The notes: generated by a model not told the origin, from the letters alone. DNA of 64,000 nt from an uncultured Acidobacteriota bacterium (GCA_963827655.1 CAWHCF010000023.1:192001-256000); one strand, 5' to 3'; shown: positions 622-38,527, counted from the stretch's first letter. Made by a program: numbers and translations.

Positions 622-1284
622 GCTGTTCAATTGGCAGGGCTACATCGAGTCCTCTAGGGTTGCGTCACCGCTTGGGAAGGGGTCCAGCGACCACCTGCTG
701 CTGTTGAACGAATCGAGAGCGCCCGGTCGCCCGCCTCGTCCCCGCTTCCGAAGAGAAGGACACGCTGCGCATCCGAAAGCCTTTGAAAGATCCGGCCGGG
801 TTGGTCGGTCTGCTGAACGTTCCGCCAGTGAAAGGCCGGCGAGCCGATAGTCTCAAGCTGTGCTCGAAGACCGACGGAAGCGCTAGGTGCCTCGTTTCCC
901 GAGGCGGGAAAATCTCGCCTGCTCTCTCTGGCAATGCTTCAGGCGGTGTCTGGCTGGCGCTCGCTTCAGCGCCGGACCGATTACGCTTCGCGATCCGCTT
1001 CACCGCCGAGCAAAGCAGGGATGCTCTTCGGCGGCCGGGAGGATCACGGCGATCGTGCCGAATCCCTGCCGGAACGGCCATCATAGGCGTGCCGCAATGC
1101 GCTTTGGCGCCCTGCCCGACCATCAGGGTTTGAGTCCGAGGTGTAATCATCGAGCGTATCTTGAAGAGGGCGCCGCCAGGAGCCGATCTCAAGAGCTGGC
1201 GCTATTGATTCTGCGCGTGTGACACATGCCAGGCCCAACCGAAACTTGGAAAATCCAAGCTCACCGGAGATGCAGGAGGTTCAG

Positions 1285-3774: not shown

Positions 3775-4253
3775 GGATCGCAATTGAGCAACCTGTACGG
3801 GTCCGTGCTTCAAAAGGCTGGTTGACAGGCCCGCATGGGCATCGCCAAGCCGGCGACATCTCTGTCCAGACCTTGACGAAAAAAATCGGCCGTTCAAGCG
3901 CATAGCCTTGGCCGTGATGAAAGGGGGGCGCCGACGTTAGCCCGCCGTCGTTGGTGAAGGGCTTATGAGAAAAAAATCCCAATTCCCGGGCCGCGTTCGC
4001 CGTCGGCTGGAGCCTCGGGGTCGAACTTCAGCCGTCGCGTCTGGTGCGGCTCGAAGACCCGTGGCTCGGGACGACGCGGACGATGAACGTCTGACGCCTG
4101 CGGCAGTTCGCAAGCTTCGCCGGGAGGTCCTTTCCACATGCGCCGGCGTAGTGAGTAGCCGCGCCTCAATCGGTCTGCTGCCGTCTCTTTGCGTCCTGGC
4201 GGTGGTTTTGTTGTCTGACCACCAAGCCTCGAAGAAACACTTCGACTAATCGC

Positions 4254-4283
4254 TTGACAAGCCGAAAAGCATCCGAATATCCT
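4254..4283 (+). promoter_or_regulatory. Putative sigma70 promoter of the TonB-dependent receptor
   Basis: TTGACA-N18-TATCCT about 57 nt upstream of the ATG at 4341. Confidence 0.35.
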
Positions 4284-4340
4284 CCGACCAATACTAGATT
4301 TGCATGACTCAAAGCAGTGCCTCTTCGAAGGAGGGCTACC

Positions 4341-23721: not shown

Positions 23722-25092
23722 GTGAATCCCAGTCAAATCAACCCCTCGGCCCCATCGCGCGTCGTCGATCTGGGCCAGATTCTGGATGAAGGGCGTTGGG
23801 GAGGCAGGCAGAAACTGTTCGTGTTTCTGACCGCCCTCGCCATCGTCTTCGACGGCGTCGACAATCAACTGATCGGCATTGCCGTTCCCTCGCTGATGAA
23901 GGACTGGTCGCTCGCCCGCGGCGCATTCGCGCCCATTCTCGCCAGCGGCATGATCGGCATGATGCTCGGCGGGGCAATCGCCGGCATCATCGGTGATCGG
24001 ATCGGACGCAAGTTTGCTCTGATCGGCAGCGTACTGGTGTTCGGCCTCCTCACGACGTCTGTTGCGATCGCGGACAATCTCTGGACTCTTGGAGTGCTGC
24101 GTTTCCTGGCGGGACTCGGCCTCGGGGGCGCTCTGCCCAACGCGGCGGCGCTCGCATCGGAATACGTCCCACGGCGCCATCGTCCTTTTGCCGTCACGCT
24201 GACTATCGTCTGCGTCCCGCTCGGCGGCACGCTCGCCGCTCTCCTGGGCGGACGCGTGCTCCCGGTTCTGGGATGGCGGTGGCTCTTCGCCATTGGCGGA
24301 GTGCTTCCGCTCGCCGCCGCCGTCGTTCTGATGCGCTACTTGCCGGAGTCTCCGCGCTATCTGGCGCGCTATCCCGAACGCTGGCCGGAGCTGGCGGGAG
24401 TTCTCAGACGCATCGGCCACAATGTCCTGCCCGACGCCACCTTCGTCGATCCGGGAGAGAAGGCCGGGTCCCGCGCGTCGGTCGGCGCGCTCTTCACGAC
24501 TGACTTGCGCCACGACACGCTGGCGCTGTGCGGCGCGTTCTTCTCCTGTCTGCTCGCAGTCTACACGGCGTTCAACTGGGTGCCTTCGGTGCTGGCGGGG
24601 GCTGGTCTGGGTCTTGCCGTCGCCAGTAACGGTCTGGCCGCGTTCAACCTCGGCGGCGTCGCAGGCGCGATTTGCGGAGGGCTGGTGATCGCCCGCTACG
24701 GCTCGAGACCCACGATGCTGGGGATGTCCGCGGGCGCCATTGCCGGCGCGCTGGGACTGGCGGCGATGCCAATCGTGGCCTTATCGGATGCCTTCCCGAT
24801 TATCGCGCTGCTGGGGATTACCGGGGGACTGATCAACGCTGTGCAGACAACGATGTATGCGCTGGCGGCTCATGTTTACCCGACATCGGTTCGCGCCACC
24901 GGTGTGGGCACGGCGGTCGCCGTCGGCCGCTCCGGAGGCGTCCTGAGTACGTACGCAGGGGCCTGGGCGCTCGAGTTGGGAGGGAGTGGAGCGTTCTTCG
25001 GCCTGATGGCCGCCGCCATGACACTGGTGTTGGGCTGCCTGGCTGCCGTGCGGCGACACGTTCCTCGAACGCCGGCCACCGAAATTCGGTGA
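23722..25092 (+). CDS. Aromatic acid:H+ symporter (PcaK-like MFS)
   Basis: FDGVD, GDRIGRK, RFLAGLGLGG.LPN, PESPRYL, YPTSVRATG; adjacent to pca genes. Confidence 0.88.
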   Translation: MNPSQINPSAPSRVVDLGQILDEGRWGGRQKLFVFLTALAIVFDGVDNQLIGIAVPSLMKDWSLARGAFAPILASGMIGMMLGGAIAGIIGDRIGRKFALIGSVLVFGLLTTSVAIADNLWTLGVLRFLAGLGLGGALPNAAALASEYVPRRHRPFAVTLTIVCVPLGGTLAALLGGRVLPVLGWRWLFAIGGVLPLAAAVVLMRYLPESPRYLARYPERWPELAGVLRRIGHNVLPDATFVDPGEKAGSRASVGALFTTDLRHDTLALCGAFFSCLLAVYTAFNWVPSVLAGAGLGLAVASNGLAAFNLGGVAGAICGGLVIARYGSRPTMLGMSAGAIAGALGLAAMPIVALSDAFPIIALLGITGGLINAVQTTMYALAAHVYPTSVRATGVGTAVAVGRSGGVLSTYAGAWALELGGSGAFFGLMAAAMTLVLGCLAAVRRHVPRTPATEIR

Positions 25093-25167
25093 CAGGCACC
25101 AAATTGCGCGGTGATTGCGGTCAAAAGACCGATGTTTTGCCACGCAATTTTGGAGCCTGTCACCGAA

Positions 25168-26520
25168 TTACTTCTTCGAGTCTTCGCGGTCATGGGACAG
25201 GAGCACGCGATCGATCAGCGCCTCGACCACCCCCAGATACTGTCGCGGGTCGAAGAGCCGGTCAAGTTGCTCCCGGCTCAGATGCTTCATCACTGCCGCG
25301 TCATCCTCGAGAACTTCACGCAGATGCCGCCTCCCCGCGCGCGCCCGTTCGCATGCCGCCCCAACCAGTTCGTGGGCCGCCATCCGGCCCATCACGCTCC
25401 CCAGAGCCATTTGAACCGCTTCCGAGAAAATCAACCCATGGGTCAGGTCGAGATTGGCTCGCATCCTGGCAACGTCGATCTCGAGTTCGACTATTGTGCG
25501 GGTCAAGTGGTGTAGCGCGCCTCCGGCCAGCCCGATGATCTCCGGCATGGTTTCCCACTCCGCATGCCAGCCGCCCAGCCCTCGTTCCTGTTGCTGCACC
25601 ATCGCGCCGAGCATCGCGCCGACCAGGCCGGGCATGCGTGCCGCGGCCGCCAGCACCACGGCTGACACGATCGGGTTGCGTTTGTGGGGCAAGGTCGAGG
25701 AGCCGCCGCGGCCTGCTCCCGCCGGCTCGAATACTTCCCCAACCTCGGTTTGCATTTGCAAGGCAACGTCGAGGGCAATCTTTCCCATCGTGCCGGTGCA
25801 CAGCCCCAGGGTGGCGGCCACCTCGACCCAACGATCCCGGTGAACGTGCCACGGAACATCGGGCACGGCGAGGTGCAGCTCTTCGCCGAGGGCTTTCGCA
25901 ACATCCAATCCGCTGCTCCCCAGCGCCGCAAGCGTCCCGACCGCTCCGCCAAATTGCACTACCAGCGCCCGGCGACCCGCATCGCGGAGCCGCTCGCGGT
26001 GACGATTGACCGCATCCAGCCATCCCGCCGCCTTAAACCCGAACGTCGTCGGCAACGCCTGCTGCATCAACGTTCGCCCGGCCACCGGAGTGGCTCGGTG
26101 CTTTTTAGACAGCTCCGCCAATGCACCCGAAAGAATTTCGAACTCCGCCTCGATCCGCCCCAGCGCACTGCGCAACTGCAGCGTGAATCCGGTGTCGATC
26201 GCATCCTGGCTCGTTGCTCCCCAGTGCACAAACCGCATGGCTTCATCGTCGTCTTTTCCGACCAGGGCGGTGAGCTGCTCAACCATCGGAATTGCGGGAT
26301 TGCCCGCCCACGCGGTTGCGCGCGCGAGCGAATCCATGTCGAAGAGCTCGGCCCGGCACCTGGCTGCGATGGCGATTGCGGCGGACGCGGGAATCACGCC
26401 TGCGCGCGCTTCGGCGCGCGCCAGCGCCGCCTCGAAATCCAGCATGCCTTGCAGACGGGCGCGGTCAGAAAACAGCTCTTCGATGTTTTCCCAGCGGAAC
26501 AACGGTTCCAGTAGGCGCAT
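25168..26520 (-). CDS. pcaB: 3-carboxy-cis,cis-muconate cycloisomerase
   Basis: HWGATSQD, GRTLMQQA, GGSSTLPHKRNP, GGWHAEW. Confidence 0.92.
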   Translation of the reverse strand: MRLLEPLFRWENIEELFSDRARLQGMLDFEAALARAEARAGVIPASAAIAIAARCRAELFDMDSLARATAWAGNPAIPMVEQLTALVGKDDDEAMRFVHWGATSQDAIDTGFTLQLRSALGRIEAEFEILSGALAELSKKHRATPVAGRTLMQQALPTTFGFKAAGWLDAVNRHRERLRDAGRRALVVQFGGAVGTLAALGSSGLDVAKALGEELHLAVPDVPWHVHRDRWVEVAATLGLCTGTMGKIALDVALQMQTEVGEVFEPAGAGRGGSSTLPHKRNPIVSAVVLAAAARMPGLVGAMLGAMVQQQERGLGGWHAEWETMPEIIGLAGGALHHLTRTIVELEIDVARMRANLDLTHGLIFSEAVQMALGSVMGRMAAHELVGAACERARAGRRHLREVLEDDAAVMKHLSREQLDRLFDPRQYLGVVEALIDRVLLSHDREDSKK

Positions 26521-26629
26521 GGACACCAATCTCAACCGGACAACGGGTGAGCTCCGGATGACTGCGCCAGCAAGCTCTGAACCTTACACGCATCTTGTAT
26601 TGGCCCAGAACGAATGGTTACGTCAGCCG

Positions 26630-26836
26630 GCCCTGAAAGGGCGAAGGAAATTAGCCGGGGGCAAGCGGAGCGCGGCCCCCGGTCACGCACAAACAAAGAG
26701 ACGCGCGCCCCGGAGGGGCGCTGGACGCTGCCCCTCGTTGCTCCGGCGCCCCTTCAGGGCGCATTGACTATTAACCCCTAGACCCCGGGCTGCGCTTCGC
26801 TTGCCCGGGGCTAATTTCCGTCGCCCCTCCGGGGGC
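26630..26836. repeat. Composite palindromic REP-like element (GCCCTGAAAGGGC type)
   Basis: Nested inverted repeats GGAAATTAGCC...GGCTAATTTCC, CCCTGAAAGGG / CCCCTTCAGGG, CCCCGGAGGGG / CCCCTCCGGGG. Confidence 0.75.
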
Positions 26837-26928
26837 AAGCAAACTTGCCGACACCAATGAGATGCGTCGTAAGGTTAACGAGCAAGCTTGCGAATGTCCG
26901 ACAAGGCTGCGACCGTATTGCGTCCATT

Positions 26929-27498
26929 TCAGCAGTCAAAGAAAACCGTCTCCTCAGGCCCCTGCAGGATCACGTCCCACGCGAGTAGCCGGCTCTGTTC
27001 GTCCGCCTTCCTCGCAATCAGGGTGCCGCGTCGCGCCGGTTCGACCAGATTGAGGGCAAAATCCTCGTCGTTGCCCGGCTCATCGGGAAAATAGATCCGC
27101 GTAATCAGCCGGCGCAACAAACCACGCGCAAACACGGAAACGATGAGGTGCGGCGCCTGCGGCTTTCCATCCGGTCCCGGCACCGGGCCCGGTTTTATCG
27201 TGACAAAGCGGAACCTTCCTTTGTCATCGGTAGGAATCCGCCCGTACCCTGTGAAACCCGCTTCGAGCCGTTCGGCCCTTTTGTCCTCCGGGTGGGCGTA
27301 CCTTCCATGCGTGTCCGCTTGCCAGATCTCGATCAGCGCATCCGGCACCGGCTCGCCGTCGCCATCGAGCACCCGCCCGCCGATGGTCACGCGCTCCCCC
27401 GGGATGCCCGGTCCCGCCAGGTTATCTCGGTTCAGCCATGCGAGACCGATGGTGAAGAACGGACCCACGGTTTGTGACGGCGTCGCCGGGAGGCTCAT
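26929..27498 (-). CDS. pcaG: Protocatechuate 3,4-dioxygenase alpha subunit
   Basis: TPSQTVGPFF, IEIWQAD, QAPH, ARGLL, ETVFFDC. Confidence 0.93.
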   Translation of the reverse strand: MSLPATPSQTVGPFFTIGLAWLNRDNLAGPGIPGERVTIGGRVLDGDGEPVPDALIEIWQADTHGRYAHPEDKRAERLEAGFTGYGRIPTDDKGRFRFVTIKPGPVPGPDGKPQAPHLIVSVFARGLLRRLITRIYFPDEPGNDEDFALNLVEPARRGTLIARKADEQSRLLAWDVILQGPEETVFFDC

Positions 27499-27499
27499 A

Positions 27500-28204
27500 T
27501 CATGCCTCCATCGGCGTGGCTTCGCGGCCGCTGAGGATGATGTCAAATCGGTAGCCCAGCGCCTGTTCCGGTATCGTGCAGTCCCAGTCGAAAAGGCAAA
27601 TCAGCCGGTCGCGCGCCTTCTCATTGGCCGTGCTGTTGAAAATCGGATCGTATGGCAGCAGCGGATCGCCGGGAAAATACATTTGCGTGACCAGGCGCGT
27701 CGCAAACGCCGGGCCAAAGAGCGAAAAATGAATGTGCGCCGGCCGCCACGCATTGTGATGGTTGCGCCAGGGATATGCGCCCGGCCGGATGGTCACGAAG
27801 CGGTACCAGCCGCCGGCGTCGGTCAGCGTACGACCGCAACCCGTGAAGTAAGGGTCGAGGGGCGCGTCGTGCTGATCCCGCTCATGCAGATATCTCCCAG
27901 CCGCGTTCGCTTGCCAGATCTCGACCAAGGTATGCGGCACCGGTCGCCCGTCCTGGTCCAGCACCCGCCCGCTCACGACGATACGCTCTCCCGACGGCTC
28001 TCCGGAAGCCTGCTTCGTCAAGTCAAACAAAGCCAGGCCGACGGTCTCCTCCTCGAATACGGGTCCGGTTACCTCGGAAACCGTGTGCGGGAGATAGACC
28101 AACGGCTTGGTCGGCGCGCGCTTGAGGGATGAGAGATACTGGGGATGCAGGTGATTCGGCTGAGTCCCCGGAATCGGCCTCCGGTAGCCGGCGATGTTCG
28201 TCAT
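27500..28204 (-). CDS. pcaH: Protocatechuate 3,4-dioxygenase beta subunit
   Basis: EIWQANAAGRY, PGAYPWRNHHNAWRPAHIHFS, TQMYFPGDPL. Confidence 0.95.
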   Translation of the reverse strand: MTNIAGYRRPIPGTQPNHLHPQYLSSLKRAPTKPLVYLPHTVSEVTGPVFEEETVGLALFDLTKQASGEPSGERIVVSGRVLDQDGRPVPHTLVEIWQANAAGRYLHERDQHDAPLDPYFTGCGRTLTDAGGWYRFVTIRPGAYPWRNHHNAWRPAHIHFSLFGPAFATRLVTQMYFPGDPLLPYDPIFNSTANEKARDRLICLFDWDCTIPEQALGYRFDIILSGREATPMEA

Positions 28205-28424: not shown

Positions 28425-29507
28425 ATGCACCGAAGTGATGTGGTGGGCAGTCTGTTGCGTCCGGCCTACCTGAAGGAGGCGCGAGAGCGCCACGACTCGG
28501 CTGAACTCACCGATACGGTCTTCAAGCGCATCGAGGACCGAGCCGTTGACGAAGCGGTGGCTCTGCAAGAGAGAGCCGGGATCGACGTGGTCAGCGATGG
28601 CGAGATGCGGCGCTACGCATTCTATGGTCACCTCATCGAGGCCGTGGAGGGGTACGACAAGTTTGGGGGCTGGGCCATCCCGTTCCGGAATGAAGAGGGA
28701 GAGGAAATTATTCTAAGACGCCCCGTGGTCGTCTCACGCTTGCGCCGCAAGCGTCATCTGTGCGCGGAGGAATTCACCTACTTGCGCGCGCGAACCAACC
28801 GCGCCGCCAAGACTACGCTGATCAGCGCGCAACAGGCGGCGGCCTACTACGACCGCAAGAAGTCGAGCGCCGCCTACATCACGATTGATGCCTACCTGGC
28901 GGACCTGGTCGACATCCTGCGCGGAGAAGTAGAGGAGTTGATCCGTCTGGGCTGCACTTACATCCAGATTGACTCCCCGCAATACGCCGCGCTGCTGGAT
29001 TCCGACCTGCGCGAAGGATACCGCAAGCGCGGCAACGACCCGGATCGGCTGCTGGATCTGTCGATTGAGATGGATAATGCGGTGATCGGCGATCATCCGG
29101 GCATTACCTTTGGCCTGCATCTGTGCCGGGGCAATAACCAGAGCAAGTTCTATGCCCGCGGAGACTATGGACCGATCACCCGGGTCTTTCGCAACACAAA
29201 GTTCCAACGCTTCCTGCTGGAATTTGACGATGAACGCTCCGGGGGCTTTGAGCCGCTCGGCCAGATGCCGGAAGACAGAACCGTCGTGCTGGGACTGGTG
29301 AGCTCAAAGCAGGGAGCGCTGGAAAGCAAAGAAGAGTTGAAACGCCGCGTCCAGGAAGCCGCGGCCATTATTCCGCAGGAAAGACTGGCACTGAGTCCAC
29401 AGTGCGGATTCGCGTCAACCATGGAGGGCAACCTGTTAACGCCGGATGATCAGGAAGCCAAACTGCGCCTGGTGGCAGAAACCGCTCGAGAGCTGTGGGG
29501 CGCATGA
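28425..29507 (+). CDS. Cobalamin-independent methionine synthase II family (single-barrel MetE-like) protein
   Basis: DVVGSLLRP, DGEMRR, YIQID.P, HLCRGN, LEFD, SPQCGFAS. Start between 28398 and 28425. Confidence 0.88.
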   Translation: MHRSDVVGSLLRPAYLKEARERHDSAELTDTVFKRIEDRAVDEAVALQERAGIDVVSDGEMRRYAFYGHLIEAVEGYDKFGGWAIPFRNEEGEEIILRRPVVVSRLRRKRHLCAEEFTYLRARTNRAAKTTLISAQQAAAYYDRKKSSAAYITIDAYLADLVDILRGEVEELIRLGCTYIQIDSPQYAALLDSDLREGYRKRGNDPDRLLDLSIEMDNAVIGDHPGITFGLHLCRGNNQSKFYARGDYGPITRVFRNTKFQRFLLEFDDERSGGFEPLGQMPEDRTVVLGLVSSKQGALESKEELKRRVQEAAAIIPQERLALSPQCGFASTMEGNLLTPDDQEAKLRLVAETARELWGA

Positions 29508-29512
29508 CCCGA

Positions 29513-29596
29513 CTTAGTGTTTCTTCGTGCCTTCGTGTCTTCGTGGTTAGAATTGTCTAACGAATACCACTAAGACTCAAAGACGCGAAGAAACAC
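29513..29596. repeat. Octamer-type inverted repeat family (CTTCGTGT / ACACGAAG), best copy of about nine
   Basis: Other full or half copies near 4185-4240, 15971-16026, 19804-19839, 23649-23714, 46210-46245, 48346-48372, 56182-56218 and 63711-63765. Confidence 0.8.
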
Positions 29597-29677
29597 GATG
29601 TATACTCTCTCTCAATCAACACGGATCCGGACTATGCGGAAGTATTTGCTCGGACGTCGCAACCTGCCACAAGGGGG

Positions 29678-31057
29678 TTGACCATCGCAGAATCGAGCAT
29701 TTTCTGGGACACGCTGCTCCAGCTGATAGAGGAAGGCAAGGTCGTTCCGATCGCGGGGCAGGATCTTTTGACCATCGACACGCCGGCGGGTTCGAAGCTG
29801 CTCTATGCCTACCTCGCCGAGCAGCTGGCCGGATATCTTGGAATCTCCGGTGACAGCTTGCCGGCGGGCAACGAACTCAACGAAGTCGCCTACCGTTTCC
29901 TGGCGCAAGGCAACCAGCTGGAGGATATCTATCCCGCGCTGAAAGCAGTCGCCTCCAAAGTCGAGGCTTTACCGGTCCCAGAACCACTGCTCCAGCTGGC
30001 CGACATCCGTCCGTTGCAGTTGTTTGTCACTACCACCTTCGATTCCTTCTTGACACGAGCGATCAACCAGAAACGCTTCGGAGGCAACGCGACGACCAGA
30101 GTAATCGCCTATTCGCCCACCGAGCTGGCAGACCTGCCCGGCGACATGAAGAGTTTGAATTCGCCCATCGTCTATCACCTGCTTGGCAAGCTGTCGTCTA
30201 CTCCGGCCTATGCCGTCACCCAGGAAGACTTCGTTGAGTTCTTCCACTCGCTGCAATCGGGGACGCGGCAGCCTCCGCTGCTGTTCGACGAGTTGAATCG
30301 GCAAAGCTTGATGGTTCTTGGCAGCCGCTTCAGCGGCTGGCTGGCACGTTTCTTCATGCGCATGCCCAAGCGGCAGCGTCTTTCGGCCGGAGGCAAGAGT
30401 GATTATGTCGTCGATGCAGAGGTGAGCAACGACGGCAATCAGGTGCTGTTCCTTAAGAACTTCAGCAAGGCGACAAAAATCTATCGCAGCGGGGGAGTTC
30501 TCGAGTTCGTCCGTGAACTCCATGGCCGCTGGAGGGAACGTCACCCCGAAAACACTGAGGTTGTTGCCGCGCCCTTGGATTCCTCCCTGGCACCTCAACT
30601 GAGACCCGGTGCCGTATTTCTGAGCTACGCCAGCGGCGACGCCGAAGCGGCGGAAAAGCTCAAGATGGGCCTGGAAGGAGCCGGCGTTGACGTATTCTTC
30701 GATCGGGAGCAGCTGGAACCTGGAGACGATTGGGAGGCAAAACTGCGGCGCAGCATCCACCACTGTTCGCTGTTCCTTCCGATCATCTCGCAGCACACTT
30801 TGACTCCCGAGCGCCGCTTCTTCCGCATGGAATGGAACCTCGCCCTCGAAGAGGCCCAAAAAGCTTCCTTCTCTGATGACGAAGCATTCCTGCTCCCCGT
30901 CGTAATCGATGATACGAAAATCGACGACCCTGCAATTCCATCCAGGTTTCGCGCCACCCAATGGAAATCACTCCCCGGCGGCCAACCGACACCGGATTTC
31001 GTCAGCCGCGTGCAGCAGCTCTATCGAAAGTACCTGAAATCCCGAGCGAGGACCTGA
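29678..31057 (+). CDS. SIR2-like domain + C-terminal TIR domain protein
   Basis: N-terminal VVPIAG...FVTTTFD...VYHLLGK...LMVLG (degenerate SIR2_2 pattern); TIR VFLSYAS.D...VFFDREQLEPGDDW...FLPIIS...FFRMEW. Confidence 0.82.
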   Translation: MTIAESSIFWDTLLQLIEEGKVVPIAGQDLLTIDTPAGSKLLYAYLAEQLAGYLGISGDSLPAGNELNEVAYRFLAQGNQLEDIYPALKAVASKVEALPVPEPLLQLADIRPLQLFVTTTFDSFLTRAINQKRFGGNATTRVIAYSPTELADLPGDMKSLNSPIVYHLLGKLSSTPAYAVTQEDFVEFFHSLQSGTRQPPLLFDELNRQSLMVLGSRFSGWLARFFMRMPKRQRLSAGGKSDYVVDAEVSNDGNQVLFLKNFSKATKIYRSGGVLEFVRELHGRWRERHPENTEVVAAPLDSSLAPQLRPGAVFLSYASGDAEAAEKLKMGLEGAGVDVFFDREQLEPGDDWEAKLRRSIHHCSLFLPIISQHTLTPERRFFRMEWNLALEEAQKASFSDDEAFLLPVVIDDTKIDDPAIPSRFRATQWKSLPGGQPTPDFVSRVQQLYRKYLKSRART

Positions 31058-32976
31058 TGCACGTCGAAGAGGGGGTCCCGCAAGCTCCATCCGGCTCGTC
31101 AACCGTCAGCACCGACAATCCTTGGCCGGGACTGCTGGCCTTTCGCGAAGCGGATCAAGGTTATTTCCAGGGCCGCAAAGCCGAGACCGAGGAACTGTTT
31201 CGCCTGGTGATGCGCGAACGCCTGAGCGTTTTGTTCGGTCTTTCCGGCCTGGGCAAGTCCTCGTTGCTGCAGGCCGGTCTCTTTCCCTTGCTGCGCCGCG
31301 AAACCGTTTTCCCGGTCTATATCCGCCTGGACTTCTCTGACCCAGAGCCCGAGCTGGTCGGCCAGGCAAAGGCCGATATTGCCCGCGAAGCGTCGGCGGC
31401 GCACATCGAAGCTCCACCGGCCAAAGCCGGCGATACGCTCTGGGAATACTTTCACCGCCAGGACAACGACTTCTGGAACGCCCGCAACCAGCCCGTGATT
31501 CCTCTCCTGGTTTTCGACCAGTTCGAGGAGATCTTCACCCTTGGCCGCGTAGACCCAAACCGCACGCGAGCCACGGAAGCGCTGATCGAGCAACTCGCTG
31601 ACCTGGTCGAAGGCCGGCCTCCTGCAAGACTCAAAGCCAGACTTGACGAGCATCCCGAGGAAACCAAGGAATTCTTGTTCTCACATCACGATTACAAGAT
31701 TCTCCTCAGCATCCGTGAAGACTTCTTGCCGGACCTGGAAGCCTTGCGCACCCGCATGCCGGCTCTGTCACTGAACCGATTCCGCCTCCGGCGAATGAAC
31801 GGCGAGGCTGCCGTTCTGGTAGTGAATCAAGCCCGGCACCTGATCGATCCCGATGTCGCCGAACAGGTGGTGCGCTTCGTTGCCGCCGACCAGCGCCGCC
31901 TTCCGCTTGCCGATCTCGAGGTGGAACCCGCGCTCCTGAGCGTCGTCTGCCGGGAACTGAACAACAAGCGTCGAGCCCTGGGTGCGCCGAAGATCACCGC
32001 CAGCCTGCTTGCGGGCAGCCACGAACAGGTCCTCGAGGGCGTGTATGAGTCGAGCGTGGCAGACCTTCCGATTGAGGTACGGCGGTTTGTTGAGGACCGC
32101 CTGCTGACCGTTTCCGGCTATCGCGACAGTGTTGCCCTTGATAACGCGCTCAGTGCGCCCGGCGTCACTCGCGAGTCCATTGCCCGTCTCGTGGACCGCA
32201 GGCTTGTGCGCCGGGAAGATCGGGGTGGTGTGCAACGCCTGGAGCTGACGCATGATCTTCTTTGTGGAGTCGTACGCGCCAGCCGCGACCACCGCCTCCA
32301 GCTCGAGGCCGCTGAAAATGAGCGGCGTGCTCTTCTGGAAGCGCAGGAACGTGAGAAGCTGCAGCGAGATCGCCAGAACTTGAAGAGAACCCGAGTCGCC
32401 GCCGCTTTGTTCCTGATTTTGACGATCGCAGCCGTCGCGGCTGCAATTTGGGCGGTCAAATTACGAACGGTGGCCGAGAATGCCCGGACAATTGCGGAGA
32501 CGGCGCGATCGGAGGCAGACAAGGCGCGGCTCGATGCCGAACAACAGCGCAAGAGGGCGGAATCCGCAGTTGAAATGATTCAGAGAAGCCTGCTCATCCG
32601 GCAGGCCGCGCTGTCCGGAGATAAAGTCAGCCTCGCCAGGCTGCTATCGTCACTGGATCAGAACACCACCATCCGCTTCACAGCCAGGGCCACCGACCTT
32701 GGATACAAGAATCCCAGTAACCAGCAGGTCTACAAGTTTGATCTCTACCCGGAACCTGGGACAGCCGGCAAAGACGCAGTCGCCTTCGTTACCTACCTGG
32801 CGGACCATCCCACGTTCCAGAACACGCTGATGACCGCCGGCGCGGACCGAGGCTTTCGCGCTTCCTACATCGGTTGGGGATGTCTGAACCGTATTGTTGC
32901 CCTGGTGGAATACAAGGATCCCACGCGCCCGCCCACCGTGGCGGAGTTTAACATGTGCAACGCACTCAGTTGGTGA
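31057..32976 (+). CDS. STAND (nSTAND1-like) NTPase with TM helix and C-terminal pYEATS-like domain
   Basis: NPWPGL..F..GR, Walker A GLSGLGKSS, Walker B LVFDQFEE, REDF, ELTHD; TM VAAALFLILTIAAVAAAIWAV; C-terminal VTYLADHPTF...GFRASYIGWG. TGATG overlap with the upstream gene. Confidence 0.82.
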   Translation: MHVEEGVPQAPSGSSTVSTDNPWPGLLAFREADQGYFQGRKAETEELFRLVMRERLSVLFGLSGLGKSSLLQAGLFPLLRRETVFPVYIRLDFSDPEPELVGQAKADIAREASAAHIEAPPAKAGDTLWEYFHRQDNDFWNARNQPVIPLLVFDQFEEIFTLGRVDPNRTRATEALIEQLADLVEGRPPARLKARLDEHPEETKEFLFSHHDYKILLSIREDFLPDLEALRTRMPALSLNRFRLRRMNGEAAVLVVNQARHLIDPDVAEQVVRFVAADQRRLPLADLEVEPALLSVVCRELNNKRRALGAPKITASLLAGSHEQVLEGVYESSVADLPIEVRRFVEDRLLTVSGYRDSVALDNALSAPGVTRESIARLVDRRLVRREDRGGVQRLELTHDLLCGVVRASRDHRLQLEAAENERRALLEAQEREKLQRDRQNLKRTRVAAALFLILTIAAVAAAIWAVKLRTVAENARTIAETARSEADKARLDAEQQRKRAESAVEMIQRSLLIRQAALSGDKVSLARLLSSLDQNTTIRFTARATDLGYKNPSNQQVYKFDLYPEPGTAGKDAVAFVTYLADHPTFQNTLMTAGADRGFRASYIGWGCLNRIVALVEYKDPTRPPTVAEFNMCNALSW

Positions 32977-33110
32977 GTGTCGGAGCGCCGCCGCGGCATG
33001 CACAACTGCGTGCCGAGAAGCATGCAGTCTCCGGTTTCCAGGCCGCTATCCGGTCCGTTCGTGCGGATAGCCGGCTGTCCGTTGATCTGCGCAGTGCGGG
33101 CATGGCTGGA

Positions 33111-34052
33111 TCATGGATCGCGCAGCAGCAACCGCACGCTGGCCATCACCGTCTCCCAGGCTGGCGCCTGGGGGTTGATCCCATCGAAGTGATTGGCGCC
33201 TTCCATGATCGGCATGCGAACCGGGTCGCCCGCCTTCTCGGCCGCCGCAACATAATCCTTGAATAGCCCGAGCCACCCGTCGCGATTCTTGCCCGCCAGC
33301 AAAAGTTCCTGCTTCACGCCGATCGGCAGCAAGCCACTCGCCGAACCCTCGCGATAGCGATCAGGAACCTCCGCCGGCGTACCCCCGACAAACTGCGTGA
33401 TCACAGGCCCGCCGCACACCGGCTGCTCGATGGCGCGGGCCGCTGCGAGATCCGGAGGCCCATCGACGCTCACAACGCCTTTCAGTGGAAGCGGCGAATC
33501 CGTGTGCAGCACGCTGCCCTTCGGCAGCTTCTCTCGCGCGGCCAGCCACAACGCGAGCTGACCGCCCGACGAGTGACCGATCGCGATTGCATGCTTCAGG
33601 TCGAGATGATGGCGCGTGGCCAGTTCGCGTAAGAGGTCCGTCGCCTTGCTTAAATCGAGATAGGTGCCGGGCCAACCGCCCCCCTCATTTCCCAGACGGC
33701 GATACTCAACGTTCCACGAGGCGATCCCGGCTTTGGCAAGCGCCGCGGCCATCGGGCGCAGCAGCTCGAAGGAAGTGACGGGCTCGGGCAGCTTCCCCAG
33801 CCTGGCCGACCAACATCCTCCATGAACAAGGATCGCAACGGGAAACGGTCCGGCTCCGGCCGGCAATCGCAGTTCGCCGAACTGGAGCGGGTCCTTGCCG
33901 TAGACAATCCGCTCATTCGCGGGCGGCGTCTCCTGCTTGATCAATTCCAGGGGATTCGTTGCCTGGCCGTGCAGGAAACCGGCTGAAAGCAGAGTCAGTG
34001 CAGCGAGCCGTTGCACAAGAGTCCGACTGCCGATCGGTTTGGCCAATAGCAT
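33111..34052 (-). CDS. Secreted alpha/beta hydrolase (esterase/lipase)
   Basis: HGGCW, EYRRLG..GGGWP, GHSSGGQLA, NHF. Confidence 0.88.
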   Translation of the reverse strand: MLLAKPIGSRTLVQRLAALTLLSAGFLHGQATNPLELIKQETPPANERIVYGKDPLQFGELRLPAGAGPFPVAILVHGGCWSARLGKLPEPVTSFELLRPMAAALAKAGIASWNVEYRRLGNEGGGWPGTYLDLSKATDLLRELATRHHLDLKHAIAIGHSSGGQLALWLAAREKLPKGSVLHTDSPLPLKGVVSVDGPPDLAAARAIEQPVCGGPVITQFVGGTPAEVPDRYREGSASGLLPIGVKQELLLAGKNRDGWLGLFKDYVAAAEKAGDPVRMPIMEGANHFDGINPQAPAWETVMASVRLLLRDP

Positions 34053-36984: not shown

Positions 36985-38527
36985 ATGACCCAGCAAAGCC
37001 ATTCGAAGGCACAACTCACCCTTTTCGGCGTATTCCTGCTTCTTCTCACTGCCGCCTGCACGAAAGAACCTACGCCGCCGGCGGCCACACCCCAGTCACC
37101 GGAGCGCCAGGCGACTCCAGAGCCGAAGGGCGCGTCCGACGTCCAGTCGCCGGAAAACCCCTTACTTGATATTGCCGCCCGGAAGTGGACCGGCGATTTA
37201 GACGGCATGATCGAGCGGCGCATGGTTCGTGTTTTGACCACGCCCTCGAAGACCACATTTTTCGTTGATCGGGGCACACAGCTTGGTCTGGTGCCCGACT
37301 CCTTCCGGTTGTTCGAGGACGACCTGAACAAGCGACTCAACAACAAGAACATTCGAGTGCACGTCGTGTTCATTCCGGTTGCGCACGACGATCTCATTCC
37401 GGCGCTGCTCGACGGGCGCGGCGACATCGTGGCAGCGACCAAGTTGATCACCGCCTGGCGCAAGGAGCAGGTCGACTTCGCGAACCCGACGAGGAGTGGC
37501 ATCTCTTCAATCATCGTCACCGGGCCCGGCGCGCCGCCGATTGCGACGGTCCAGGATCTGAGCGGCAAGGAGGTCTATCTTCGGACCTCGGACGTTTCGA
37601 CTCAGGGCGTCGAGCGGTTCAACGCCCAGCTTGCCGCGTCAGGCAAACCGCCGGTGAAGATTCGGCCGGCTCCGGAAGTGCTCGCCGACGAAGACATCCT
37701 CGAGATGGTCAACGCGGGTCTGGTCCCCATGACGATGGTAGACGATTACATCGCACAGTTCTGGCAGCAGATCTTCCCGGGAATCGTGCTCAACACAGCT
37801 GCCGCCGTCCGGACCGACGGCCAGACGGCGATGATGATCCGCAAAAACAGCCCGAAGTTGATGGCCGAGCTGAACGCGTTCGTCGCCCGTTACCCGGAAG
37901 GATCGCTGCAGCGCAACGTGCTGCTGCAGAAATACCTGAAGAGCGTCAAGTACGCCAAGGCGGCGACAGCGAAGGAGGACCTCTCGAGGTTCAATCAAAC
38001 CGTTGAGTTCATACGCAAATACAGCGACCAGTACAAGCTCGACTATCTGCTCATGGCCGCTCAGGGATACCAGGAGTCGCGAACTCGATCACAGCAAGAA
38101 GAGTCCGGTGGGAGCGATCGGTGTGATGCAGGTGATGCCGAAGACCGGCGCAGAGCTGAAGGTCGGCGACATCACACGCCTCGATGCCAACGTCCACGCG
38201 GGTGTGAAATACATTCGCTTCATGATGGATCGCTATTACGCCGACGAACCGATGGATTTACTCAACAAGGGCCTGTTCACATTCGCTTCCTACAACGCCG
38301 GGCCCGCCCGTATCCAGCAACTCCGCGACCGCGCCGCAAAACGCGGTTTGGACCCGAACAAGTGGTTCAACAATGTCGAGATCATCGCGGCCGAGAACAT
38401 CGGCCGGGAAACCGTGCAGTACGTCTCGAACATCTACAAGTACTACCTCGCCTACAAAATGCTCAGCGAGCAGAAGCAGGAGCGGTTGAAGGCCAAAGGG
38501 GGACTTGAGGCGAACAGCAGGCAGTAG
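36985..38527 (+). CDS. MltF-like lytic transglycosylase (SBP + SLT domains), frameshift near 38080
   Basis: Lipobox LTAAC; WTGDLDGMIERR; AQGYQES; continuation GAIGVMQV, ASYNAGP, ETVQYV. Confidence 0.85.

Follow-up and report, generated by a model that had tools for sequence, protein, structure and literature searches.

A coupled SIR2-like/TIR and membrane nSTAND1 gene pair with a YEATS-like outer domain: a candidate Toll-like surveillance system in Acidobacteriota and other bacteria

Relationship to described systems

Among described systems, the logic closest to that of the gene pair described here is found in the receptor-like TIR–ParA systems. These belong to a set of 'apoptosis' gene dyads with receptor-like and ligand-binding subtypes, which are predicted by the authors to catch signs of invasion before these reach the cytoplasm (Li, Burroughs & Aravind, bioRxiv 2026, 10.64898/2026.10.19.760177). 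The dyads and the pair both have an upstream gene for an active-type TIR protein followed by an NTPase gene with variable sensors. In one subtype of the dyads, as is predicted for gene B, the NTPase protein spans the membrane once, in type-II orientation, and has an extracellular sensor that varies; another subtype carries a pYEATS domain, as gene B does. However, the NTPase is nSTAND1 in the pair and ParA in the dyads, and the TIR protein is extended by an N-terminal, apparently dead SIR2-like domain here and by an FxsC-type domain there. The pYEATS domain occurs among the soluble ligand-binding forms of the dyads, whereas here it is predicted to lie beyond a membrane helix. No ParA family was found among the Pfam matches of protein B at E ≤ 1, and all NCBIfam matches were far below cut-off, that to FxsC_Nterm being weak (22 bits against 130).

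Each antiviral STAND protein is one cytoplasmic chain that begins with a fused effector and whose sensor binds phage proteins in the cytoplasm. The bacterial NLR-like Avs and bNACHT proteins share with the pair a STAND switch, a variable C-terminal sensor and a NAD+-consuming effector of the SIR2/TIR type, and protein A resembles, in its SIR2-like fold, the SIR2 domain of the SIR2–STAND protein Avs5 (PDB 9jap, 9nc9). The pair differs from antiviral STANDs in its separate, translationally coupled effector, its membrane-anchored NTPase and its predicted extracytoplasmic sensor. Thoeris (ThsA SIR2–SLOG and ThsB TIR) likewise brings a SIR2 fold and a TIR domain together in one NAD+-centred system. 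Its SIR2 and TIR are carried by two proteins, with an active SIR2 as effector and a SLOG domain that receives the TIR product. In the pair, by contrast, the SIR2 and TIR domains are fused, the SIR2 domain is without the GAG, Asn and His residues, there is no SLOG domain and an NTPase receptor is the obligate partner.

PADLOC-DB v2.0.0, against which the sequence-only reading had proposed to gauge novelty, holds no system model that was matched by both proteins. The matches of protein A were limited to TIR-region parts of unrelated models (those to ThsB models at E 0.011 and 0.058), protein B gave one weak match, to PtuA (E 0.018), and no PADLOC Avs model was matched by the pair. A description of a SIR2-like/TIR protein with a membrane nSTAND1 partner was found neither in the literature searched nor in PADLOC.

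The gene pair, its conservation and its variable outer domain

The locus occupies positions 29678-32976 of the window, the 64,000-nt stretch of DNA from an uncultured Acidobacteriota bacterium that was analysed (Table 1). The string cTGATGc at 31054-31060 is common to both genes, the start codon of gene B beginning inside the stop codon of gene A, which bears out the translational coupling proposed in the sequence-only reading. The other sequence features named there were also all found where they had been placed. In 51 of 78 related loci the two genes can overlap by 1 or 4 nt. The flanks of the pair carry MetE-like, hydrolase and 5'-3' exonuclease genes of housekeeping type, and on inspection of the flanking genes of the window the pair lies outside any recognisable defence island.

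Table 1. Positions of the genes, domains and motifs of the locus, counted from the first nucleotide of the window
Feature	Position	Strand	Evidence or detail
Gene A, SIR2-like + TIR protein, 459 aa	29678..31057	+	ORF list; start TTG, stop TGA 31055-31057
SIR2-like domain, residues 1-290, predicted non-catalytic	29678..30547	+	AF2 model matches SIR2 domains of ThsA, DSR2, Avs5, KomC
PIAGQD, replacing NAD-binding GAGxS loop	29747..29764	+	MAFFT alignment to canonical SIR2_2 proteins L105-L107
TTTFD (residues 118-122), replacing TTN[YF]D; Asn to T120	30029..30043	+	HMMER alignment to WTMNYD, LTTNFD; also MAFFT
HLLG (residues 167-170), replacing K[ML]HG; His to L169	30176..30187	+	MAFFT alignment to canonical SIR2_2 proteins
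TIR domain, residues 313-433	30614..30976	+	Pfam TIR_2 (PF13676) E 5e-20, 72.6 bits against cut-off 28
E385, catalytic-position Glu of TIR, in FFRMEW (381-386)	30830..30832	+	Invariant in 28 homologues
TGATG, gene A stop overlapping gene B start	31055..31059	+	Sequence
Gene B, nSTAND1 NTPase + helical stalk + transmembrane helix + second stalk + pYEATS	31057..32976	+	639 aa; start ATG
nSTAND1 NTPase module, residues 22-403	31120..32265	+	Pfam PF20703 E 6.7e-29, 102 bits against cut-off 27.1
Walker A, GLSGLGKSS, residues 61-69	31237..31263	+	Conservation in 36 sequences
Walker B, LLVFDQFEE, with DQFEE = 154-158	31504..31530	+	D154, Q155, F156, E157, E158 invariant, 36 sequences
Single transmembrane helix, residues 447-467, predicted N-terminus inside, C-terminus outside	32395..32457	+	Hydropathy scan
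Predicted extracytoplasmic pYEATS-like domain, residues 535-639	32659..32973	+	Pfam matches of relatives, AF2, Foldseek
HPTF (584-587), opposite YEATS2 H259-P260-S261-Y262	32806..32817	+	HMMER, family profile A5 against YEATS2 chains
GWGC (606-609), opposite YEATS2 G281-W282-G283-E284; C609 = first Cys	32872..32883	+	HMMER, family profile A5
C634, second Cys of presumed disulfide	32956..32958	+	Co-variation with C609

An nSTAND1 gene lies directly downstream of gene A, on the same strand, in 78 of the 80 loci fetched, the two misses being contigs that end about 110 nt past gene A. Recurrence at this frequency places the pairing far beyond chance. Genes A and B form one conserved module, as the proposal of a two-gene system had implied. 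The loci with the pair span Acidobacteriota, Verrucomicrobiota, Beta- and Gammaproteobacteria, Nitrospira and Bacteroidota, and the genome of the window has four copies. Homologues of gene A number 790, and both SIR2_2 and TIR are present in 117 among the 120 listed. Beside the pair, 23 of the 78 loci have a cluster of similar ORFs, 18 of 28 such ORFs being downstream on the same strand; one example contains a TPR-S domain and an end that by eye resembles a nucleotide cyclase.

The region of the partner gene that follows the membrane helix contains WD40 in 15 and TPR in 21 of the 64 partner genes scanned, and gene B homologues also carry FGE-sulfatase and CHASE2 there, while pYEATS is rare as a sensor (4 of 78 loci; 3 of 301 genomes of the phylum). 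When the sensor label is mapped on a 111-row tree built from the cytoplasmic part, it has to change 13 times, against a minimum of 4. The chassis of ATPase and helix is constant, with an outer domain that has been swapped repeatedly among WD40, TPR, FGE, CHASE2 and, rarely, pYEATS. Since close relatives hold these other domains at the same place, pYEATS occupies the position of the repeat sensor, as had been suggested from the sequence. As the repeats of the relatives are likewise beyond the membrane helix, the whole family is one of membrane receptors.

The best reading of the pair, and by analogy a rather probable one, is a two-part, Toll-like transmembrane surveillance system that would activate a TIR NADase. 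Because no PADLOC system model is matched and no relative was found in phage records, the immune role rests on domain analogy and on receptor-like diversification. An unlikely alternative, although the strongest, is trans-envelope signalling for ordinary physiology (envelope stress, cell–cell contact, or a developmental or social cue) and not for immunity or suicide; the outer domain would then read a ligand from the envelope or the environment, and the STAND ATPase would switch the TIR domain to make a nucleotide messenger or to scaffold partners, and the cell would survive. The housekeeping-like neighbourhood fits this alternative, as do the lack of phage relatives, the ORF cluster beside the pair in 23 loci, with the apparent nucleotide cyclase of one example, and the presence in some relatives of CHASE2, a classical signalling sensor. 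However, so far as established, TIR domains with the catalytic-position Glu serve conflict systems, where they cleave NAD+ as effectors or to generate a signal, and repeated sensor exchange combined with four copies in one genome is typical of immune receptor repertoires. In addition nSTAND1, pYEATS and TPR-S have each been defined in predicted conflict systems.

The TIR and SIR2-like domains of protein A

The TIR domain of protein A gives PDB sequence matches to BtpA, PdTIR, AbTIR and SARM1, and its fold matches the TIR domains of SPARTA, SARM1, BtpA and PdTIR. The catalytic-position Glu was expected to be kept, and E385 does lie opposite the motif Glu (W/K-V-x-x-E) in all four TIR_2 paralogue alignments that reach that position, the facing motifs being WVTWE, WVREE, KVTQE and NVKQE. 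In the AF2 model it is one turn into helix 381-395. A local HMMER alignment to PdTIR conflicts with this by setting E385 against a different Glu (FFKKE), and the catalytic assignment is therefore based on the paralogues. Among longer proteins, the closest relatives of this TIR are N-terminal TIR domains with 45-53% identity. A hydrophobic helix is observed at about residues 171-275 in 34 of these 44 proteins, and Pfam lists TPR, TolB-like or FGE domains in the set; a TIR at the N-terminus can thus be joined to a hydrophobic helix and to TPR or FGE within one chain, an arrangement that may be compared with Toll-like receptors. No fused SIR2–TIR–nSTAND1 protein, which would establish a link between A and B, was found. 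All 44 longer matches cover ≤34% of the query, and such a blank is weak evidence.

The N-terminal domain is matched by Pfam SIR2_2 (PF13289) over residues 115-236 with 29.6 bits against a cut-off of 24.5, and with 32.4 bits in a genome-scale search. It has no sequence match in the PDB. The AF2 model of protein A is of moderate confidence (pLDDT 71.8) and contains a SIR2 Rossmann fold, for which Foldseek matches ThsA, EfAvs5, KomC, DSR2 and SPARSA with E values from 1.7e-8 to 5e-4. The sequence-only reading had called this domain degenerate, and the description holds for the family as a whole, the GAG, Asn and His motifs being replaced throughout. The PIAGQD stretch, in which P24 and G27 are invariant in homologue alignments, stands opposite F[IVL]GAG[VLF]S in the three canonical SIR2_2 proteins, taken from related genomes, that were aligned, and T120 occupies the Asn position of their T[MT]N[YF]D motif. 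Across 40 sequences T119, T120, F121, D122 and G170 are invariant, and no His is found at position 169 among the 28 homologues shown. In SIR2 the Asn of TTN[YF]D and the His of xHG are the catalytic residues. Because the fold persists without any of the three motifs, the domain is predicted to be a non-enzyme, without NAD-binding and catalytic residues.

It is improbable that the SIR2-like domain is instead the true effector, working through residues other than the canonical ones (it might be an ADP-ribosyltransferase, say, or bind NAD(P) or ADPR and act on a target), with the TIR domain just a signal generator or adaptor in a Thoeris-like TIR-to-SIR2 relay within one chain. Such a relay would agree with the full-length model of protein A, which aligns best to ThsA (SIR2 and a Rossmann-like second domain), with conservation as strong as that of the TIR domain (40 invariant columns in 290), and with the retention of D122 of the TTN[YF]D motif and of an E-D-x-x-E-F stretch. 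The replacement of all three motifs, with T120 and G170 fixed and His missing from position 169, argues against it, as does the absence from protein A of a SLOG or other signal-binding domain; both ThsA and DSR2 become inactive when the Asn or His is mutated. Under the preferred reading as a surveillance system, gene A would supply, in a TIR domain with the catalytic-position Glu, the effector that is as a rule fused to the N-terminal end of a STAND protein itself.

The membrane NTPase, its YEATS-like domain and the proposed mechanism

Protein B departs from the tripartite STAND plan of a fused N-terminal effector and a C-terminal repeat sensor, as just 21 residues are found upstream of its NTPase, the effector is encoded by a separate gene and the sensor is one pYEATS domain behind a membrane helix, where relatives have WD40 or TPR. 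The nSTAND1 match and the invariance of the Walker motifs, which in Walker A extends to G61, S63, G64, L65, G66, K67 and S69 in 36 sequences, confirm the intact Walker A and B that had been reported, and the one hydrophobic helix agrees with the single membrane span claimed at the same time. This helix is flanked by charged stretches and has a counterpart at the equivalent place in 73 of 78 partner genes. In line with the positive-inside rule, 68 of the 73 have a higher Lys+Arg count on the N-terminal side of the helix than on the C-terminal side, 5 have equal counts and 0 show the reverse. After the membrane helix a further helix is predicted by AF2 at about residues 501-531. The gene B product is thus predicted to be a type-II single-pass membrane receptor with the ATP-binding NTPase and a first stalk in the cytoplasm and, on a second stalk, the YEATS-fold domain in the periplasm.

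In Pfam, three of the four families that the sequence-only reading had named, SIR2_2, TIR_2 and nSTAND1, are above cut-off, whereas pYEATS (PF20305, residues 573-622) stays below its own, with 18.4 bits, 21.1 in another scan and 21.6 for the isolated domain against 26.9; in a genome-scale search of the window's genome Pfam pYEATS finds nothing at E ≤ 0.01. Among relatives of the C-terminal domain gathered by phmmer (260 clusters), pYEATS is matched by 41 of 55 (best E 1.1e-20) and eukaryotic YEATS (PF03366) by 9. In a HMMER comparison with the PDB, the match of the family profile to YEATS2 is no better than E 0.04. The AF2 model of the domain (pLDDT 95.2, pTM 0.87) gives Foldseek matches to the PDB of which all those listed are YEATS domains (GAS41, Taf14, AF9, YEATS2 and Yaf9; best E 1e-5). 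The modelled domain shares its immunoglobulin-like β-sandwich with the eukaryotic YEATS readers (YEATS2, AF9, Taf14, GAS41) and Pfam pYEATS, along with the cage residues H-P-[ST]-[FY] and G-W-G. In YEATS2, H259, S261 and Y262 and W282 and G283 form the acyl-lysine cage (PMC4856769). Across 225 domains the cage His is conserved in 188, Thr or Ser in 212, Phe in 209, Trp in 175 (plus Tyr in 7) and Gly in 210, the Trp being replaced by Val, Ile or Thr in about a fifth. The pattern VTY..HPTF..GF..S..GWG is present and conserved together with C609 and C634, so that the pYEATS-like C-terminus with two Cys first recognized from the sequence stands. By transitive homology, predicted fold and retained cage residues, the domain is assigned as a divergent YEATS domain, one predicted to keep the aromatic cage and hydrogen-bonding residues that eukaryotic YEATS domains use for an acyl-amide.

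The Cys pair co-varies in 215 domains, with both kept in 201, both lost in 8 and one lost in 6. Because of this co-variation and the positive-inside rule the domain is placed outside the cytoplasm, where the pair presumably forms a disulfide. It differs in this placement from YEATS domains, and its Cys pair is missing from the aligned YEATS2 (the first Cys is opposite E284). It is joined to a membrane STAND, whereas eukaryotic YEATS domains are found on chromatin proteins. Its presence in many small proteins, behind an N-terminal membrane anchor and a helical stretch, also speaks for an outer location.

Least probable is a reversed polarity, in which protein A and/or the NTPase would sense an intracellular cue and the variable outer domain would be an output or anchor that, for example, tethers to or perturbs the cell wall or outer membrane: a STAND without a cytoplasmic sensor domain is unusual, and Kaur et al. 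(2020) took the variable C-terminal domains of a membrane-associated two-gene system as effectors, but the outer domains here (WD40, TPR, FGE/C-lectin, CHASE2, YEATS) are binding modules rather than enzymes or pore formers, the conserved ligand cage of the pYEATS domain favours recognition, and the one domain of enzymatic type that retains its key residue, the TIR, is on the cytoplasmic side.

Read as a Toll-like surveillance system, the two overlapping genes are likely to encode a bacterial alarm device, and the pair is widespread. The outer domain would bind a ligand bearing an acyl-amide, or another envelope cue, and the signal would travel via the stalks to the nSTAND1 NTPase modules, which would exchange nucleotide and oligomerise. 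The oligomer would recruit copies of protein A, probably with the dead SIR2-like domain as adaptor, and the clustered TIR domains would form composite active sites cleaving NAD+, with its depletion or the synthesis of a signal nucleotide as the outcome, so that growth of the attacked cell would be stopped. Animal Toll-like receptors follow a similar logic, with an outer ligand-binding domain, one membrane helix and a TIR output through induced proximity. The pair differs from them in its reversed orientation (N-terminus inside), its separate, enzymatic-type TIR and the ATP-driven STAND switch between, and the likeness is taken as analogy rather than as demonstrated descent. Sister systems have the same chassis with different outer domains (WD40, TPR, FGE/C-lectin, CHASE2), in the manner of immune receptor families. 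Seen as such a surveillance system, the pair would be a Toll-like receptor made of bacterial parts, with a STAND ATPase as its switch.

Organization and conservation of the pair

The pair consists of gene A, whose product joins a SIR2-like domain to a TIR domain, and gene B, whose product carries an nSTAND1 ATPase, a hydrophobic helix and a C-terminal pYEATS-like domain. The translational coupling described in the sequence-only reading is present in both the ORF list and the sequence: within cTGATGc, the A of the gene B ATG is also the A of the gene A TGA stop. An alternative in-frame ATG for gene B at 30961 would add 32 residues, but homologues start where the two genes overlap; one cluster with 100% identity is 639 aa long. 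An ORF on the minus strand (29969-30961, 330 aa) lies wholly within gene A and was rejected, being without any support. The GC content over the pair (0.56-0.58) is slightly lower than that of the flanks (0.60-0.66), and a scan of 29300-33300 gave no promoter-like sites and four terminator-like sites against 4.5 expected.

Coordinates of the pair and of the domains of its two products
Feature	Position	Strand	Length	Basis
Gene A	TTG 29678 to stop 31055-31057	+	459 aa	ORF list
Gene B	ATG 31057 to 32976	+	639 aa	ORF list, best start
SIR2_2	protein A residues 115-236			Pfam, 29.6 bits (cut-off 24.5)
TIR_2	protein A residues 313-433			Pfam, 72.6 bits
nSTAND1	protein B residues 22-403			Pfam, 102 bits
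Single hydrophobic helix	protein B residues 447-467

A profile scan with protein A over one genome per species (185,579 species) confirmed at least 434 loci, of which the best 80 were kept. These come from Acidobacteriota, Verrucomicrobiota (Opitutaceae), Beta- and Gammaproteobacteria, Nitrospira, Gemmatimonadota, Chitinophagaceae and others. The two genes are conserved together: an nSTAND1 homologue lies directly downstream of gene A on the same strand in 78 of these best 80 loci, and in the two exceptions (L019 and L064) the sequence ends about 110 nt past gene A. Metagenomic contigs of equal size recur in the lists of homologues of the two proteins, which is the same pairing. A 4-nt overlap is available in 50 of the 78 loci and TGATG in one more; as the start codon nearest the gene A stop was taken, these are loci where coupling is possible. 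Complex prediction for protein A with the cytoplasmic part of protein B gave 0.36, 0.08 and 0.30 in three runs against a mark of 0.32, with no controls folded, a result that weighs on neither side of the question of binding. There is no universal third gene in the 78 loci, and since no cluster of flanking ORFs exceeds 23 of the 78, in counts that carry noise from high-GC shadow ORFs, the core was kept at two genes.

The commonest flanking cluster lies just downstream of the pair in proteobacterial loci and is absent from the window. One example (L066:4993-6744, plus strand) shares an overlap with the nSTAND1 gene at the end of the latter. Its product has a TPR-S domain (PF20308), and the only other Pfam report is a weak MAP3K_TRAF_bd match; the resemblance of its C-terminus to a class III nucleotide cyclase is one seen by eye alone. 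Such an ORF may act as an accessory part of the signalling. Among the relatives fetched, the closest pair (L001, 88% identical) is labelled as an Acidimicrobiia MAG and the other close ones as Acidobacteriota, and this actinobacterial label could reflect binning or labelling noise or a recent transfer.

Genes for a MetE-like protein, an alpha/beta hydrolase and a 5'-3' exonuclease flank the pair, and its surroundings in the window are not an evident defence island. Upstream, at 23722-28204, an MFS transporter on the plus strand and, on the minus strand, a 3-carboxy-cis,cis-muconate cycloisomerase-like gene with two protocatechuate 3,4-dioxygenase subunit-like genes were recognized by eye; this would be an aromatic-acid degradation cluster or protocatechuate operon. 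Downstream, a 507-aa ORF (36985-38508, plus strand) reads as a normal exported protein for about 370 residues. Its remaining tail is rich in Arg, Gly and Pro, as is typical of a wrong reading frame, and a frameshift or an error of assembly is suspected.

The novelty check against the PADLOC v2 models gave no system model for the pair: protein A is matched in its TIR region alone and protein B has one weak match to PtuA. NCBIfam gives TIR matches far below threshold and, for the anchor and stalk region, a weak match to Cei. No relatives were found in phage records. The plasmid collection holds one record with the pair, the 2.56-Mb replicon of Paraburkholderia caribensis MBA4 (30% identity for protein A, 38% for the cytoplasmic part of protein B). 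At this locus (NZ_CP012748.1:372055-385392) no annotated feature overlaps in the gene table of the collection. As P. caribensis MBA4 is a cultured soil carrier, experiments are feasible and it is a possible experimental model. The literature searched yielded no published description or experimental study of the pair; the architecture may already appear in the supplements to Kaur 2020/2021 and Li 2026.

The closest described logic, in the accessible part of the source, is that of the TIR-ParA dyads (Li, Burroughs & Aravind, 2026 preprint). Like the pair, these have an upstream TIR gene and a downstream NTPase with variable sensors, and one of their subtypes is a receptor-like type-II membrane form while another bears pYEATS. 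Unlike the pair, their NTPase is ParA, and the accessible part does not mention a SIR2-like domain.

Ordinary envelope signalling is an unlikely role for the pair. The immune reading draws on the established roles of TIR, SIR2 and STAND proteins in conflict systems, on the receptor-repertoire pattern described below, and on the fact that nSTAND1, pYEATS and TPR-S all originate from predicted conflict systems.

The SIR2-like and TIR domains of protein A

An AF2 model of protein A built from 28 homologues (pLDDT 71.8) matches, in the PDB, the defence-type SIR2 domains of ThsA, the Avs5 SIR2-STAND protein, KomC, DSR2 and SPARSA. By sequence, the SIR2-like part gave nothing in the PDB at E <= 10 as a single query, and chance-level matches alone (mS23, parvalbumin) as a 40-sequence profile. 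As no solved SIR2 could thus be reached, the domain was compared with three canonical SIR2_2 proteins of related genomes that score 85-99 bits to the Pfam model. The vtttFD of the family falls opposite WTMNYD and LTTNFD in the HMMER alignment, while MAFFT places PIAGQD opposite F[IVL]GAG[VLF]S and HLLG opposite K[ML]HG. All three elements (NAD loop, Asn and His) have therefore given way to other residues, and the description of the SIR2-like domain as degenerate is borne out. This Asn and His form the catalytic pair of ThsA and DSR2. An active but non-canonical SIR2 enzyme, with T120 and G170 invariant over 40 sequences and all three of these elements replaced, is improbable. The only SIR2_2 matches in the genome of the window are the four copies of the pair. 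In its proposed role, the dead SIR2 domain would show how the fold of an enzyme can be turned into an adaptor.

The TIR part of the model matches SPARTA, TIR-STING, SARM1, BtpA and PdTIR, and R380, R383, E385 and W386 are invariant among the 28 homologues. In a local HMMER alignment with PdTIR, E385 falls opposite the Glu of FFKKE and not the downstream motif Glu. Because of this conflict, E385 was tested instead against the TIR_2 paralogues of the same genome. The family profile sets it on the Glu of WVTWE, WVREE, KVTQE or NVKQE, preceded by a two-residue gap, and all four alignments that reach this position agree. The claim that the TIR domain keeps the Glu at the catalytic position is thus upheld, with the caveat of the PdTIR alignment. 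The residue lies one turn into helix 381-395 of the model, at what we take to be the site of the catalytic Glu in SARM1 (WVHKE) and in plant and bacterial TIR NADases. A PDB sequence search with residues 355-459, which include this helix, gave no match.

Protein A is also matched by 44 proteins longer than 805 aa, all through the TIR domain alone (45-53% identity over at most 34% of the query). None is a SIR2-TIR-nSTAND1 fusion, a blank that is weak evidence. In this set (P0389-P0432), 34 of 44 proteins have an N-terminal TIR-type FxSY motif and, behind it, a hydrophobic helix around residues 171-275; one further protein has its only helix near residue 856. The precomputed Pfam lists of the set include TPR, TolB-like or FGE-sulfatase domains. 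These proteins look like bacterial 'TIR, helix, outer sensor' receptors without an NTPase, and the frequency of the helix indicates that this TIR clade has repeatedly been wired to membrane-spanning proteins.

Topology and exchangeable outer domains of protein B

The Walker A and Walker B motifs of protein B, read as intact from the sequence, are invariant over 36 sequences. Only 21 residues lie ahead of the NTPase, so protein B has no effector or adaptor domain of its own. Its single transmembrane helix, likewise part of the sequence-only reading, is a feature of the family, being present in 117 of 120 homologues among the matches listed (the three without it are 375, 413 and 527 aa long) and in 73 of the 78 partner genes of the best 80 loci. 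The five partner genes without it comprise four cuts at contig ends and one short ORF. Within 15 residues on each side of the helix, Lys and Arg average 5.3 before and 2.75 after; they are more numerous before it in 68 of the 73 genes, equal in five and never reversed. This bias, together with an ATPase that lacks a signal peptide and must stay inside, argues for an N-in, C-out topology. A reversed polarity of signalling, with the cytoplasmic parts as sensor and the outer domain as output or anchor, is very improbable.

The paper that defined pYEATS, reference 21 of the 2026 preprint, is probably that of Burroughs and Aravind in 2020. The assignment of a pYEATS-like domain to the C-terminus of protein B stands on its relatives, fold and cage motifs and not on a Pfam match of its own, as the pYEATS score (18.4 bits for the whole protein, 21.1-21.6 for fragments) stays below the 26.9-bit cut-off. 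Across the genome of the window Pfam pYEATS found nothing at E <= 0.01, a blank that is not evidence of absence. With the last 140 residues of protein B as query, a full HMMER search over 1.84 billion representatives gave 260 clusters at E <= 1e-3. Many of these are of about 620-750 aa with the domain terminal, which is the architecture of protein B, and many others are proteins of 180-290 aa with an N-terminal membrane anchor and a helical stretch ahead of the domain. Such stand-alone proteins with the Cys pair include P0344, P0365-P0375, P0379, P0384 and P0388.

In an alignment of 55 relatives of this region, 41 members match Pfam pYEATS (best E 1.1e-20) and nine match eukaryotic YEATS (best E 7.6e-8). 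The AF2 model built from it (pLDDT 95.2, pTM 0.87) consists of two helices followed by a seven-strand sandwich, and among the Foldseek matches listed from the PDB all are YEATS domains (GAS41, Taf14, AF9, YEATS2 and Yaf9; best E 1.1e-5, probability 1.00). As a profile against the PDB, the same alignment returned coiled-coil noise from its anchor and helical-stalk columns, with Taf14 at E of about 1.9. A domain-only profile placed three YEATS2 chains on top at E 0.04, these being three of four matches at E <= 10, and aligned dhPtf with HPSY and GwGC with GWGE of YEATS2. A generic Ig-like sandwich was rejected on this motif-level match to the YEATS cage and on the Pfam matches of the relatives.

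In the accessible part of Zhao et al. (2016; PMC4856769), Y262 and W282 of YEATS2 enclose crotonyl-lysine in an aromatic sandwich, the acyl amide is held by S261 and W282, and H259A, S261A, Y262A, W282A and G283A weaken or abolish binding. Protein B has H584, P585, T586 and F587, and G606, W607 and G608, at these places. Over 225 domain matches the counts are 188 for His, 212 for Thr or Ser, 209 for Phe and 210 for the second Gly, and the Trp position holds Trp in 175, Tyr in seven and Val in 22. By these counts the acyl-amide cage is kept in most members, including the protein of the window. The two Cys noted in the domain are present as C609 and C634. Both equivalents are found in 201 of 215 domains, both are lost in eight and one is lost in six; independent loss would predict about 0.6 such joint cases, although related sequences are not independent. 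The pattern of co-loss suggests a C609-C634 disulfide, and hence an oxidising, extracytoplasmic location of the domain.

What lies beyond the helix varies. Homologues that are 60-71% identical to protein B across its first 70-80% carry FGE-sulfatase, CHASE2, WD40, TPR or unnamed domains at their ends, and the 64 post-helix regions scanned contain 15 WD40 propellers and 21 TPR_12 matches. The proposal that pYEATS stands where relatives carry repeat sensors is thereby confirmed on the same chassis, that is, the cytoplasmic nSTAND1 part with its helix. The pYEATS-like end itself is rare, occurring in four of the 78 loci by tblastn (from the best 80) and in three of 301 genomes sampled from the phylum, the genome of the window included. 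A quick maximum likelihood tree of the cytoplasmic part (111 rows, LG+C20+F+G4, SH-aLRT only) left out nine of 120 rows with no helix detected between residues 380 and 540. On this tree the sensor label has to change 13 times (minimum four). Scored as pYEATS against the rest, the label has to change seven times, at least four of the changes being forced by well-supported branches.

The genome of the window (8.18 Mb in 53 contigs, 90% complete) has four copies of the pair, that of the window among them. In another (C50:180774-186309) the nSTAND1 ORF ends just past the helix and a 745-aa ORF, WD40 by eye, follows in another frame. Two near-identical copies at contig ends, C35:about 93000-98007 and C43:about 770-4315, both on the minus strand, also read as WD40 by eye and have several frame breaks, like that of the ORF at 36985-38508. 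Pseudogenes, a programmed split or errors of assembly may explain these split or broken copies.

A proposed signalling mechanism and its meaning

The interpretation in the sequence-only reading, of a sensor across the membrane signalling to a separate TIR effector, is supported as far as computation reaches. What the analysis establishes is which parts are present and how they are ordered, the signs of their topology, that the two genes are conserved together and that outer domains have been swapped; the functional part of the interpretation we infer from sequence. A cue from outside would bind the pYEATS cage and the signal would be relayed through the stalks, upon which the STAND modules would oligomerise on nucleotide exchange. 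The oligomer would gather protein A, probably via its dead SIR2-like domain, and the clustered TIR domains would then cleave NAD+.

A more specific and tentative reading, which we regard as possible rather than probable, is that the extracytoplasmic YEATS domain is an acyl-amide reader acting as an innate immune sensor that feeds a Toll-like STAND-TIR pathway. Its ligand would be an N-acyl or N-acetyl group exposed on envelope breach, on a muropeptide, lipid or acylated protein, and the single-pass STAND ATPase would trigger a cytoplasmic TIR NADase recruited by the dead SIR2 domain. If this Toll-like reading is true, a YEATS domain would for the first time be shown to act outside the cytoplasm and to serve as an immune sensor, and the family would be the first in which STAND receptors span the membrane and have outer sensors that can be exchanged.

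Immune switches of the STAND/NLR type are generally regarded as sensors that work in the cytoplasm. In the present family, by its predicted topology, the sensor lies on the other side of the membrane, with the ATPase and the TIR output inside. The family is common, in at least 434 of 185,579 species genomes and in several phyla, and it is modular. The pYEATS variant poses the question of which acyl-amide ligand a YEATS cage would meet outside a bacterial cell. If true, the pair would represent a bacterial route of envelope surveillance that uses the building blocks of innate immunity in animals and plants.
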